Of a stretch of DNA of 64,000 bases, positions 57,600 through 59,723 are shown piece after piece; within the stretch, counting starts at the first letter, position 1, and the number at the start of each line of letters is the position of its first letter. Source of the DNA: an uncultured Clostridium sp. (GTDB taxonomy: Bacteria > Bacillota > Clostridia > TANB77 > CAG-508); assembly GCA_948467875.1 (NCBI GenBank), contig CAOKFZ010000001.1, positions 61,889 through 125,888 of the forward strand, written 5' to 3'. The notes under the pieces were generated by a model. It was not told the origin of the DNA. It saw only the letters and a list, made by a program, of their open reading frames with translations, and did no database searches. The position numbers and the translations under genes are program-made.

Positions 57600-59723
57600 T
57601 TATTTTTCCTGCATTTGACGATTAATTTCTTCCTCGTTTTCTCGCATTGCCAAAATGGTTTTCTCAAACAATTCTTCCAATTCCCAGCCAAGCATTTGCG
57701 CCCCTTGCTGGATAATTTCTCGTGAACATCCACTCGCAAACTTTTTATCTTTAAATTTCTTCTTCAAGCTTGAAACTTCCATATCTTGCACACTTTTTGA
57801 AGGTCTCATTTTGGCAGCCGCCCAAATCAAACCTGTCAACTCATCAGTTGCAAACAATATTTTTTCCATCATATGCTTAGGCTCAATATCAGAACAAATA
57901 CCATAACCATGGCTACAAATCGAACGAATGATGCCATCACTCACGTTTTCTTGTTTCAACAACTCGACACATTTTTGGCAATGTTCGTCTGGATACATTT
58001 CAAAATCCACATCATGCAAAAGTCCAATATTTCCCCAATATTCTTCATCTTCCTTTTGCTCTTTAGCAAAATACTTCATGACACCTTCAACCGTCAAAGC
58101 ATGCCTAATATGAAATTCCTCTTTGTTATATTTTTTTAGAATGTCTAGTGCCTTTTCTCTTGCTATTCCTTCTGTTTTTTCGCAAGATTTTTCAAGTGTC
58201 TCCACTTCTTTGGCTACTTGTTTTGCCGTAACTTTTTCCGTTTTCAAAGGCTTCATGGTTGGGAAAAGCAAAACATCTCGAATGGATACCGAATCCGTAA
58301 ACAGCATCACCATTCTATCAACTCCAATTCCCAGACCGCCTGTTGGTGGCATTCCATATTCCAATGCTCGTACAAAATCATCATCCATCATATTAGCTTC
58401 GTCGTCGCCTGCTTCACGCTGTTTTACTTGTGCCAAAAATCTCTCGTATTGGTCAATCGGATCATTTAACTCAGAATAACCATTTCCATATTCACGAGCG
58501 TCAATAAAAAATTCAAATCTTTCTGTTACTCTGCCATCTGATGGCTTCTTTTTCGCAAGTGGAGAAACTTCAATTGGATATTCACAAATAAACGTTGGTT
58601 GAATTAACGTTTCTTCTACAAAGCTTTCAAAAAATTCACTAATCACATAACCTCTTGTTTGCTTGCTTGGTTGGATTTCCACGCCTTTTTCTTTGGCGAT
58701 GTTAAGAGCTTCTTCGTCCGAATTGATTGTGTTAAAATCAACTCCAGTTACTTCTTTGATTGCGTCAATCATGGTAATTCTTTTCCAAGGTGCTCCCAAA
58801 TCAATTTCTTTTCCTTGGTACGTAATTTTCGTTTTTCCCAATAATTTCTCAGCAATCGAACGAAACATTTCTTCCACCAAATCCATAATTTCGTTATAAT
58901 CTTGATAAGCCGCATATGACTCCATGGAAGTAAATTCTGGGTTATGATGAATGTCTATTCCTTCATTTCTGAAATTTTTTCCAATTTCATAAACACGGTC
59001 AAAACCGCCCACAATCAACCTTTTTAAATACAACTCTGGCGCAATTCTCAGATACATATCAAGCCCCAAAGCATTGTGATACGTCTCAAACAGCTTTGCA
59101 TTAGCACCACCCGCAATTGTGCTCAAAGAAGGCGTTTCCACCTCCATGTAATTTTTGTTATCATAAAAATTTCTAATTTCCTTGATAATTTTACTTCTCA
59201 TCTCAAACGTATTTTTCACTTCTGGGTTCACAATTAAATCCACATATCTCTGGCGATAACGCAAATCTGTATCTTTTAATCCATGAAACTTTTCTGGCAA
59301 ATCTCTAAGCGATTTTGCAAGCAATACAACTTCTTTGGCATGAATCGAAACTTCCCCTGTTTTTGTCTTAAAGACAAAACCTTTGATGCCAATCATATCA
59401 CCAATATCGTATGTTTTAAATGCCTTGTAACTTTCGTCACCTAAATCATTCACACTCACATAGCTTTGAATGGTTCCTGTGCTATCTTGAATGGTACAAA
59501 AAGAAGCTTTTCCCATAATTCTTTTTGCCATAATTCTACCAGCTACTGAAACATCTTTATTTTCAAAATTCTCATAATTTTCTTTGATTTGACCACTAAA
59601 TTCCGTTCGATCATATTTGGTTATTTGAAAAGGGTCCTTTCCTGCCTCTTGCAATTCTTTCAATTTATCTTTTCTTACCTGCATTAACTTATTTAACTCT
59701 AATTCTTCATTTTGCTCATCCAT
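57600..59723 (-). CDS. lysS: Lysine--tRNA ligase (class II) fused to a C-terminal HD-superfamily hydrolase domain (COG2316-like)
   Basis: Residues 1 to about 500 are canonical LysS, ending ...[28 protein letters not shown]. Residues about 500-707 carry the HD-domain motifs [12 protein letters not shown]...GLLHDVDFE...HG...[10 protein letters not shown]. That domain corresponds to 57600 to about 58220. Confidence 0.85.

Follow-up and report, generated by a model that had tools for sequence, protein, structure and literature searches.

A lysyl-tRNA synthetase with a C-terminal HDIG-type HD domain in an uncultured Clostridium sp. and its counterparts in other phyla

The lysS locus and its fused gene

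The window considered here, a 64-kb stretch of DNA from an uncultured Clostridium sp., carries a complete 707-aa open reading frame that runs from ATG to stop at 57600..59723 on the minus strand, with its stop codon at 57600-57602. The original prediction had the extent and length of this ORF right, and its strand is here corrected to minus. The encoded protein starts with a class II lysyl-tRNA synthetase (LysRS; residues ~10-493), continues through a linker and ends in a 186-residue HDIG-type HD domain (residues 522-707). The 29-residue linker (493-521) and the HD domain make up a C-terminal extension of 214 residues that the canonical LysS, at ~495 aa, does not have.

The LysRS half is a full-length orthologue of bacterial class II LysS, with an OB domain and a class II core. 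Its N-terminal OB-fold anticodon-binding domain (residues 58-135; 59319..59552, minus strand) scores 61.2 bits with PF01336 against a cutoff of 27, and the class II aminoacyl-tRNA synthetase (aaRS) catalytic core (residues 152-490; 58254..59270, minus strand) scores 315.7 bits with PF00152 and preserves motifs 2 (FRNEG) and 3 (GLGIGVDR). Residues 10-493 span both LysS models from end to end, well above their curated cut-offs (NF001756, 726.7 bits against 468; TIGR00499, 680.1 bits against 427.6). The sole departure from the universally conserved (120/120) columns of the LysRS part is an apparent P211L (codon CTG, 59091-59093), which sits in the otherwise invariant segment GGAxA(K/R)PF. Inactivation of the synthetase through an Arg to His change in motif 2 was considered and rejected, as the FRNEG arginine is intact and the histidine lies in a variable (R/K) column. 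No second lysS was found within the 64-kb window, and the gene is probably the organism's housekeeping class II lysyl-tRNA synthetase.

The canonical LysS C-terminus ([26 protein letters not shown]) precedes the HD part in the same frame, and the DNA over the junction is open, with zero stops. No credible internal start was found at the domain boundary, where the codon matching the initial Met of the stand-alone proteins is ATA (Ile). The linker ([29 protein letters not shown]; 58161..58247, minus strand) is K/E-rich and predicted to be flexible, with pLDDT below 50 for residues 485-517 of the predicted model, and is hypervariable in alignments, differing in length and sequence by lineage. Upstream, 34 bp from the start codon, is a promoter-like TTTACA-17-TATAAT (59757..59785, minus strand), a consensus match only, which has 11 of the 12 consensus positions and is the best such site within a 4 kb region. 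An Rfam search of the whole 64-kb window gave 0 matches, so no T-box or similar leader was found.

The order lysS, M50 peptidase, TsaD, metallophosphatase is common to fused and unfused genomes, which indicates that the fusion occupies the orthologous lysS locus. A proposed tie to other genes of dNTP metabolism in the window fell away on distance and non-conservation: the TSCPD/dGTPase pair lies 50 kb from the fusion gene, and the deoxynucleotidase-like gene next to the fusion is a low-GC, strain-specific insertion that is missing in a 94%-identical relative.

To our knowledge, bacterial aaRSs rarely carry extra catalytic domains besides editing domains. The fusion pairs a synthetase with an apparently active metal phosphohydrolase of an uncharacterised family. 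No description of this architecture was found in the literature searched, the coverage of which was incomplete, so that absence is not proof. Public databases label the protein plain “lysine--tRNA ligase”, a label that conceals a second, putative enzyme in the genomes of several phyla.

Recurrence and exchange of the HD module

The same architecture occurs in ~50 clusters (90% identity) of 696-733 aa that are 65-98% identical to the window protein. Two of these, P0121 and P0122, also have 707 aa and are 98% and 94% identical to it, on independent contigs. Among the new LysS representatives (50% identity) listed, 26 of 149 carry the HD subfamily, and these come from Clostridia, cultured Parafannyhessea umbonata, Parcubacteria and Peregrinibacteria. 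Named examples are P. umbonata WP_078687421.1, the Parcubacteria MAG protein PLX22187.1 and the Peregrinibacteria MAG protein MFH0820405.1; the first of these, from a cultured species, gives straightforward experimental access to the fusion. Variant architectures include a reverse-order HD-LysS (P0382), LysS-B3_4-HD in an Asgard archaeon MAG, LysS-tRNA_bind-B3_4-HD and LysS-HAD-HD. The joining thus spans Bacillota, Actinomycetota, CPR bacteria and one Asgard archaeon.

The original prediction had named a sequencing frameshift joining lysS to a separate HD gene as its possible undoing, and such an origin through an assembly or sequencing error or a chance, functionally meaningless read-through is exceedingly improbable. 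In its favour, HD subfamily members are mostly stand-alone and the nearest LysS relatives, at 89-92% identity, lack the fusion. Against it, the junction is clean and in frame with a lineage-specific linker and no boundary start codon, many independent contigs, which stem from various samples and sequencing sources, show the same architecture, as does a RefSeq genome of a cultured species, the architecture is conserved across distant phyla down to 36-47% identity, and the HD domain in fused forms is under purifying selection. That the LysRS-HD fusion is genuine can be regarded as practically certain.

LysS cores that are 88-92% identical bear HD modules that are just 64-69% identical, and the converse pattern is also found, which indicates that the HD module has been swapped repeatedly while remaining fused. 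This claim of incongruence rests on the pairwise identity contrasts, as the neighbour-joining trees carry no bootstrap support. By these contrasts and the variant architectures, the fusion arose or was re-assembled several times. A simple loss of the stop codon between adjacent lysS and HD genes was considered for the present lineage and is unsupported, since the nearest relatives with an unfused lysS lack an HD gene beside it. In other, unfused genomes, a type B stand-alone HD gene lies 3.5 kb downstream of lysS, and an ancestral adjacency of the two genes is possible for some fusions.

LysRS also bears other modules. LysX (MprF-LysRS) has a membrane lysyl-phosphatidylglycerol synthase domain; with the LysX model NF002821, the window protein reaches 529 bits, short of the cutoff of 742, and matches the LysRS half only (model positions 613-1100). 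LysRS-B3_4 and LysRS-tRNA_bind are uncharacterised and differ from the present fusion in that their appended folds are tRNA-directed and not phosphohydrolases. Taken together, these proteins mark LysRS as a recurrent platform for appended modules. The repeated joining of LysRS and HD, in both orders, with swapped modules and in distant taxa, is a strong “Rosetta-stone” signal that the two work jointly, and the HD domain is very probably functionally coupled to LysRS.

The HD domain and its stand-alone relatives

The C-terminal domain (residues 522-707; 57603..58160, minus strand) is all-helical and has the all-α HD fold. The motifs HIRHALT, GLLHDVD, SHGYG and [10 protein letters not shown] follow one another in this order. 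The GLLHDVD motif (residues 567-573; 58005..58025, minus strand) includes the putative catalytic doublet H570-D571 as well as D573, and further putative ligands on the same strand are H541 (58101-58103), H581 (57981-57983) and H605 (57909-57911). Across 28 diverse sequences, both fused and stand-alone, there is no variation at G567, L568, L569, H570, D571 and D573, nor at H541, H581 and H605, and the putative metal ligands do not vary among 48 fused sequences from Clostridia either. As the last acidic ligand, D and E both occur; in the window protein it is D627. The H..HD..H..H core is retained in every variant architecture. Of the HD signature first proposed for the domain, the motifs are present as described, while its “H-x2-H” element reduces to the second histidine, H541, which alone is conserved. 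The suspicion that the metal ligands might be missing on proper alignment did not hold; their invariance makes the domain look catalytic, and judging from these residues it is very probably an active hydrolase that probably binds two metal ions.

Near the C-terminus is a subfamily-specific basic motif (residues 654-663; 57735..57764, minus strand), which is followed by an invariant R668. K660, F662 and A663 are invariant too, and the pattern K-S-x-KKKFKDKxFA is kept from Clostridia to CPR phyla. We regard the motif as a candidate phosphate or RNA-backbone binding site.

The window domain scores just under the thresholds of the general HD models (PF01966, 15.9 against 22; TIGR00277, 27.1 against 27.6). 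Relatives that are 65-85% identical exceed the PF01966 threshold with 23.8-31.6 bits, as do three of four variant fusions (27.1-35.8 bits), the fourth, P0417, reaching 20.2. The HDIG model matches all 28 diverse members at E <= 0.01 (best 1.7e-12). The original view of a genuine LysRS that ends in an HD-superfamily domain, homologous to stand-alone HD hydrolases of ~190 aa, is supported. HDIG phosphodiesterases such as the HD domain of the c-di-AMP phosphodiesterase PgpH and RNase Y (TIGR00277) have 7TM or KH partners that are absent here, and the likeness extends to the generic core only.

The HD subfamily consists mostly of stand-alone proteins of ~190 aa that are widespread in anaerobes, and no structure has been solved for it. 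Stand-alone relatives of 187-191 aa are 75-85% identical to the window domain, a likeness much stronger than had been supposed when the domain was compared with stand-alone HD hydrolases of ~200 aa. One relative, P0331, carries the JGI name “predicted hydrolase (HD superfamily)”, which is the wording of COG2316; no mention of COG2316 was found in the literature searched, the coverage of which was incomplete. A species-level survey of loci of the HD subfamily took the best 80 as its sample. In 79 of these, the HD gene lies away from lysS, which indicates that the core function of the HD domain is independent of LysRS, and no dominant conserved neighbour was found among the 79. Among the longer matches of searches with the HD domain, the fusions seen were to LysRS only.

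A fold search gave a flat ranking over HD families that assigns no subfamily, and a search of a viral library returned nothing informative. By sequence profile, the nearest solved relative is YqeK (COG1713/TIGR00488), the HD-domain symmetrical Ap4A hydrolase of Gram-positives. A search of all PDB chains with a diverse profile placed YqeK-family Ap4A hydrolases at the top (8jja, E 0.005; 2ogi, 0.03; 8wmy, 0.2; 3ccg, 0.6), with matches essentially confined to the generic H...LLHD region; PDB sequence searches with the single domain and with a narrow profile gave chance matches only. YqeK resembles the present domain in size (~190 aa) and in its extended H..HD..H..H..D ligand set. However, it belongs to a different family. 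Structural alignments with YqeK structures (2O08, 2OGI, 3CCG, 8WMY) give 15-21% sequence identity, the present subfamily has a KKKFKDKxFA...R motif and an HDxD signature of its own, and no nadD linkage was observed for it. Membership of the YqeK family was ruled out on the TIGR00488 model, which matches four of 28 members far under its cutoff (best E 4.7e-4) and does not match the window copy at E <= 0.01.

Possible functions of the HD domain

Ap4A is made by aaRSs, LysRS/LysU being the listed bacterial producers, and is degraded by YqeK, an HD enzyme with a two-iron site (reviewed in PMC10148737). Nucleotides of this type form in a reaction of lysyl-AMP with ATP or some other NTP. In the reading preferred here, the HDIG-type phosphohydrolase that a flexible linker of ~30 residues tethers to the class II LysRS would be catalytically competent and would break down a phosphoanhydride that the LysRS active site produces. 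Its likeliest substrates are Ap4A and similar dinucleoside polyphosphates, perhaps with Np4 caps among them. One dimeric enzyme would then both make and degrade the alarmone, and Ap4A would rise if the metal centre were inactivated, as it might be by oxidation in these anaerobes. We give a probability of roughly 0.4 to Ap4A/Np4N made by LysRS being the substrate of the HD domain.

The identity of the fusion partner and the weak profile similarity to YqeK structures point towards Ap4A. A NUDIX gene that overlaps the HD gene in one lineage and the HAD phosphatase added to one of the fusions were also counted in favour. Around 16 of the 79 stand-alone loci have neighbours of the tRNA-modification type (ThiF/TcdA-like, MnmA, PP-loop plus rhodanese); in our view, the ThiF-family, MnmA and PP-loop proteins may be joined with LysRS as adenylate-forming families, whose chemistry would yield Ap4A as a by-product. 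Counted against Ap4A are the mismatch to TIGR00488, the generic nature of the PDB matches, the restriction of the NUDIX gene to one of 80 species-level loci and the location of 79 of 80 loci away from lysS. Clostridia generally possess YqeK (the source of 3ccg is Clostridium acetobutylicum), and a second Ap4A hydrolase might therefore be redundant. The full-length AF2 model, a poor one (pTM 0.50) owing to a shallow alignment, has a flexible linker and no docking of the HD domain on the LysRS active site.

If the HD domain degrades Ap4A-type nucleotides, the fusion would offer a physical handle on the long debate about Ap4A as regulated alarmone or mere by-product, and would bring to light a new family of Ap4A hydrolases common in gut anaerobes. 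A bolder version, and a doubtful one, makes the fusion the first aaRS to carry a hydrolase against a signalling by-product that it generates itself: the tethered two-metal HD domain would destroy Ap4A/Np4N, or take off Np4 caps, formed at the neighbouring LysRS site, and redox or metal inactivation of the HD centre would change the enzyme, in anaerobes, from a silent into a net producer of alarmone. The stand-alone subfamily would then be a third Ap4A-hydrolase family besides ApaH and YqeK. Such a family would be both bacterial and archaeal, unrecognised so far and a partner of adenylate-forming enzymes.

A tRNA-directed role, in which the HD domain acts as a phosphoesterase on tRNA(Lys), or more broadly on the 3' ends of tRNAs, is a close rival that is about as well supported as Ap4A hydrolysis, although we rate it as somewhat unlikely. 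The HD domain of the E. coli CCA-adding enzyme has an end-healing activity of the 2',3'-cyclic phosphodiesterase/3'-phosphatase type. The HD domain of the fusion might similarly heal damaged CCA ends for charging by LysRS, or might have an RNase-Y-like nuclease or processing activity; either way, it would be one of several tRNA quality-control modules appended to LysRS. LysRS lacks a classical editing domain, and an HD domain acting on tRNA(Lys) would be a new type of tRNA quality control on such a synthetase.

Fusions of LysRS with B3_4 and with tRNA_bind are common, which suggests that LysRS accessory modules are often tRNA-directed, and P0383 and P0417 carry the HD subfamily together with tRNA_bind (Trbp111/PheRS-B2) and B3_4 (PheRS β editing-type) on LysRS polypeptides. 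However, HD and B3_4 are mostly independent of each other on LysRS, with HD present without B3_4 in 23 forms and B3_4 without HD in at least nine. RNase Y (21/28, best 2e-8) and the HD part of an archaeal tRNA Cm56 methyltransferase model (Trm56-HD; 18/28, best 7.6e-11) give the commonest specific NCBIfam similarities of the HD subfamily, and these two models match more members, and more strongly, than TIGR00488. Such similarities are nevertheless weak, lie far under the family cut-offs and concern the generic HD core only, the Trm56-HD match ending before the subfamily-specific C-terminal motif. That motif, polybasic and conserved, might contact an RNA backbone, but the stand-alone protein is a single HD domain in which an RNA-binding module is not recognisable. 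The tRNA-modification-type neighbours would fit a tRNA-directed function, but they are a minority and are equally well explained as adenylate-forming enzymes. Finally, a general end-repair enzyme should also have other aaRSs or the CCA-adding enzyme as fusion partners, whereas LysRS is the only partner among the longer matches.

It is quite improbable that the domain is a non-catalytic appendage, with the HD fold contributing only tRNA binding or allostery to LysRS. The precedent is the HD domain of GlyRS β from the (αβ)2 GlyRS, which is the best structural match to the present domain, at 10-13% sequence identity, and which acts in tRNA acceptor-arm binding and in the second catalytic step rather than in hydrolysis (PMC8464048). 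In E. coli GlyRS β, though, the His-Asp doublet is replaced by Ser-Lys (PMC8464048), in contrast to the LysRS-HD and stand-alone proteins, where the doublet and all the His ligands are invariant in the 28 sequences, as are the putative ligands in the 48 fused Clostridial ones. One fused representative, P0506, is without the GLLHD motif. The nearly identical stand-alone proteins, for their part, must have a function of their own.

Still less probable is the reversal of a modification, in which the HD domain would dephosphorylate or de-AMPylate LysRS or tRNA(Lys), stripping off a phosphoryl or nucleotidyl group placed there by toxins of the kinds found at the same locus. An analogue would be GlnD, the HD domain of which is uridylyl-removing, and kinases of the HipA family target aaRSs, reportedly including LysS in Caulobacter. 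However, toxin-like genes differ between genomes and are missing from most fused loci and from the 79 stand-alone loci surveyed, and no conserved HD/toxin pairing was found, the fusions compared being those outside the CPR and Atopobiaceae. What favours such a role is the gap between lysS and the M50 peptidase gene, an insertion hot spot that holds Fic, HipA_C, PemK-like and GNAT genes in the window and its relatives, and at loci L011-L016, a Fic gene is followed downstream, at a distance of one or two genes, by the stand-alone HD gene.

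The fused gene and its synthetase half

The fusion ORF, lysS-HD, occupies 57600..59723 on the minus strand and runs from ATG to stop over 707 aa, exactly where the original prediction had placed it, with a promoter-like site of good quality upstream. Residues 11–493 clearly form a class II LysRS of bacterial type, with profile matches above the cut-offs (NF001756, 726.7 bits, cutoff 468; TIGR00499, 680.1 bits, cutoff 427.6; PF00152, 315.7 bits; PF01336, 61.2 bits). The protein is thus a canonical LysS with a C-terminal extension. The LysRS core is intact, and P211L is the sole departure from universally conserved (120/120) columns. 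The R/K-to-H change in “DIHHNPEF” sits in a variable column, away from the motif 2 arginine.

Codon 211 (59091-59093) encodes Leu (CTG), where all 120 LysS relatives compared have Pro. It falls in the GGAxA(K/R)PF segment, and the Pro is kept even in the 98%-identical protein P0121. P211L may reflect strain variation, or an error in sequencing or assembly.

After ...FPTMKP there is no stop, and the frame stays open into a K/E-rich linker of 29 residues (residues 493-521, minus strand). This is followed by the 186-residue HD domain, HIRH(541)...GLLH(570)D(571)VD(573)...EH(581)C...SH(605)GYG...TD(627)EL, at whose boundary there is no usable start codon, Ile (ATA) being found where stand-alone proteins have Met. 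In a full-length AF2 model (pTM 0.50) the linker is disordered and the HD domain is not docked onto LysRS.

The HD domain and its possible function

The HD domain is a member of a large family whose stand-alone proteins, of 187–191 aa, are 75–85% identical to the window's domain. The family has at least 600 matches among GTDB species representatives; the matches listed include Lachnospiraceae, Oscillospiraceae, Negativicutes, Treponema, Bacteroidales and Synergistaceae. Among the best 80 of these (at least 600) loci, one is fused and the other 79 are stand-alone and lack lysS within 8 kb, so that the fusion is a minority architecture, yet a recurrent one. The top HD-domain match, P0001 (279 aa, on an 868-bp contig), has its C-terminal half duplicated, with the MEKVLFAADELTGLI... 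segment present twice; this is probably a chimeric short assembly and not a true tandem duplication.

The window domain scores just under the thresholds (HD, 15.9 vs 22 bits; HDIG, 27.1 vs 27.6), and its relatives exceed that for HD (23.8–31.6 bits). Invariant in 28 diverse fused and stand-alone sequences are H541, W563, G567-L-L-H570-D571, D573, H581, H605, G631, P641, K660, F662, A663 and R668, a set that includes all of the predicted metal ligands (H541, H570, D571, H581 and H605, 28/28). The H...HD...H...H...(D/E) arrangement of ligands is that of two-metal HD enzymes, YqeK, PgpH and HD-GYP among them. A basic motif, K-S-x-KKKFKDKxFA...R, is specific to the subfamily and conserved from Clostridia to CPR phyla. 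AlphaFold models the domain confidently as all-helical (pLDDT 91.8, pTM 0.89). The HD core is also kept in reverse-order and multi-domain fusions, only P0506 being degenerate. The domain very probably acts as a metal-dependent phosphohydrolase, and that it should be a non-catalytic module is most unlikely. The sole described HD fold embedded in an aminoacyl-tRNA synthetase, that of GlyRS beta, is by contrast degenerate and non-hydrolytic.

PDB searches with the single domain or a narrow profile detected no solved structure by sequence. With a diverse profile, the best matches were YqeK-family Ap4A hydrolases, mainly over the H...LLHD segment (8jja, E 0.005; 2ogi, 0.03; 8wmy, 0.2; 3ccg, 0.6; 2o08, 1.2). 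Among NCBIfam models, 28/28 diverse subfamily members matched HDIG (TIGR00277, best E 1.7e-12), 21/28 RNase Y (TIGR03319, 2e-8), 18/28 the HD half of the tRNA Cm56 methyltransferase model (NF009343, 7.6e-11), 16/28 TIGR00295 (1.2e-5), 11/28 NadD-YqeK (NF005519, 2.7e-6) and 4/28 YqeK itself (TIGR00488, 4.7e-4). By this pattern the domain is classed as a predicted HDIG-type protein in an uncharacterised subfamily of its own, with HDIG phosphodiesterases in general among its closest known relatives. Membership in YqeK was rejected on the TIGR00488 result, although the domain may act alike.

The current thinking, to which we give a probability of about 40%, is that the domain hydrolyzes Ap4A or other Np4N made by the attached LysRS. 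LysRS/LysU is the classic Ap4A producer, and YqeK is a Gram-positive Ap4A hydrolase and an HD enzyme (PMC10148737). This reading is favored because YqeK has the same size and ligand pattern and is, by profile, the closest relative with a solved structure, and because LysRS is apparently the only fusion partner among longer HD-domain matches. Further support comes from a HAD phosphatase in one fusion and from one lineage (loci L002-L005 and L017) in which there is an 8-base overlap between the end of a 140-aa NUDIX hydrolase gene and the stand-alone HD gene, an arrangement suggestive of translational coupling. Against this reading, the NUDIX link is rare, found in 1/80 species-level loci (the best 80 of at least 600), and these genomes may already have YqeK.

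Recurrent neighbors of stand-alone HD genes are ThiF-family genes (8 loci), MnmA (4) and PP-loop plus rhodanese genes (4). ThiF-family, MnmA and PP-loop proteins are, like LysRS, of adenylate-forming families, whose chemistry yields Ap4A as a by-product and so fits Ap4A hydrolysis. These neighbors are also tRNA-modification enzymes, and a less probable alternative is that the domain is a tRNA(Lys)-directed phosphoesterase. This would agree with the tRNA_bind and B3_4 modules that share LysRS polypeptides with HD domains, with RNase Y and Trm56-HD as the commonest specific profile similarities, and with the tRNA-contacting GlyRS beta HD domain as the top structural neighbor. However, all of the tRNA-side similarities are sub-threshold and confined to the generic core, and the stand-alone protein has no RNA-binding module.

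The lysS locus and the rest of the window

Fused and unfused genes share the order lysS, M50 peptidase, TsaD and metallophosphatase, which makes the fused gene most likely the housekeeping lysS orthologue. In some unfused genomes, a type B HD gene (one of two module types, A and B) lies 3.5 kb downstream of lysS, with Fic, GNAT or PemK-like insertions between.

The lysS-M50 gap is an insertion hot spot. In the window it holds genes for an NT5C-like HAD 5'-deoxynucleotidase and a PemK/MazF-like protein (56425-57582, 24–27% GC). The pair was not found in the 94%-identical relative L099 and is therefore a recent insertion. The gap in relatives L011-L016 and L097-L098 carries toxin–antitoxin-like genes (for Fic, HipA_C, PemK-like and GNAT acetyltransferase proteins), including a homologous-looking 165-aa PemK-like gene after unfused lysS in L014-L016. 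These families are known to target translation. It is highly improbable that the HD domain reverses a toxin-inflicted modification.

The proposed TSCPD and dGTPase pair does exist, though at a distance of 50 kb from lysS-HD, and has no relation to the fused HD subfamily. At 5352-7395, a TSCPD-domain protein (85 aa), a dGTPase-like HD protein with HD_assoc (401 aa) and a histidine phosphatase (183 aa) are encoded on one strand. The 61221-63954 stretch encodes a 633-aa protein that combines an Ig-like domain with a C-terminal type I dockerin, adjoined by a 271-aa surface-type protein that has a long low-complexity region rich in Asn, Thr and Gly and is anchored in the membrane at its C-terminus, which suggests a cellulosome-like or cohesin–dockerin surface system in a low-GC Clostridia-type organism. 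Of the 73 non-overlapping ORFs, nearly all lie on the minus strand, and the profile of the 54-64 kb stretch has a negative GC skew throughout. Across the 64 kb, no Rfam family (tRNA, rRNA, riboswitch, T-box) reached its gathering score.

Recurrence of the fusion and other LysRS architectures

A full-length search found the same architecture in about 50 clusters (90% identity) of 696–733 aa, 65–98% identical to the window protein, drawn from ENA, Logan, JGI and NCBI assemblies, some titled “MAG: lysine--tRNA ligase [Clostridia bacterium]”. When 1.84 billion cluster representatives (50% identity) were searched exhaustively with HMMER, many proteins of 671–765 aa were found that align continuously over query residues ~10–700 at 36–47% identity, and the HD-domain profile was positive in 26/149 new LysS representatives listed (50% identity clusters). 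Distant examples come from Parafannyhessea umbonata/Atopobiaceae, a cultured actinobacterium (RefSeq WP_078687421.1, 752 aa), and from Parcubacteria (PLX22187.1) and Peregrinibacteria (MFH0820405.1) MAGs. The predicted fusion is thus real and not a frameshift: recurrence in independent assemblies, the open in-frame junction and the missing boundary start codon leave an artefact next to no probability.

There is sequence evidence for several apparently independent fusion events. P0382 and its cluster have the reverse order, HD(4-178)-LysS(258-713); the cluster has 8 members, one of them the JGI protein P0514 (715 aa, on 9 contigs). Others are LysS-B3_4-HD (P0417, Promethearchaeota MAG), LysS-tRNA_bind-B3_4-HD (P0383) and LysS-HAD-HD (P0498). 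The window clade, with P0121 and P0122, is nested within unfused LysS proteins that are 89–92% identical. The A and B types of Clostridia HD module are deeply split, and their distribution conflicts with the LysS tree. The trees are neighbor-joining without bootstrap support, and the claim of module exchange is based on pairwise contrasts: LysS and HD identities are 92% and 64% for P0125/P0137, 90% and 69% for P0130/P0151, 89% and 68% for P0136/P0150, 90% and 67% for P0135/P0166, but 74% and 85% for P0130/P0125.

The literature searched, with incomplete coverage, held no description of a LysRS-HD fusion or its HD subfamily; public databases contain such proteins, named only “lysine--tRNA ligase”. 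The novelty would be an undescribed appended catalytic domain, of an uncharacterised subfamily and predicted activity, on a known enzyme, which should surprise specialists moderately. Since the fusion is repeated, bidirectional and cross-phylum, and a cultured source organism exists, Ap4A control or tRNA(Lys) quality control can be tested directly.

To our knowledge, LysRS has no classical post-transfer editing domain, and a LysRS-B3_4 fusion may therefore be a separate finding worth study; nothing on it was found in the same incompletely covered literature. B3_4, a PheRS-beta-type, editing-like domain, occurs on the LysRS of many uncultured organisms, C-terminally in seven representatives and N-terminally in two. 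Other metagenomic representatives carry a tRNA_bind domain or eleven TPR repeats (accessory-domain proteins P0403, P0406, P0424, P0448, P0455, P0466, P0490, P0433, P0439, P0363 and P0395).
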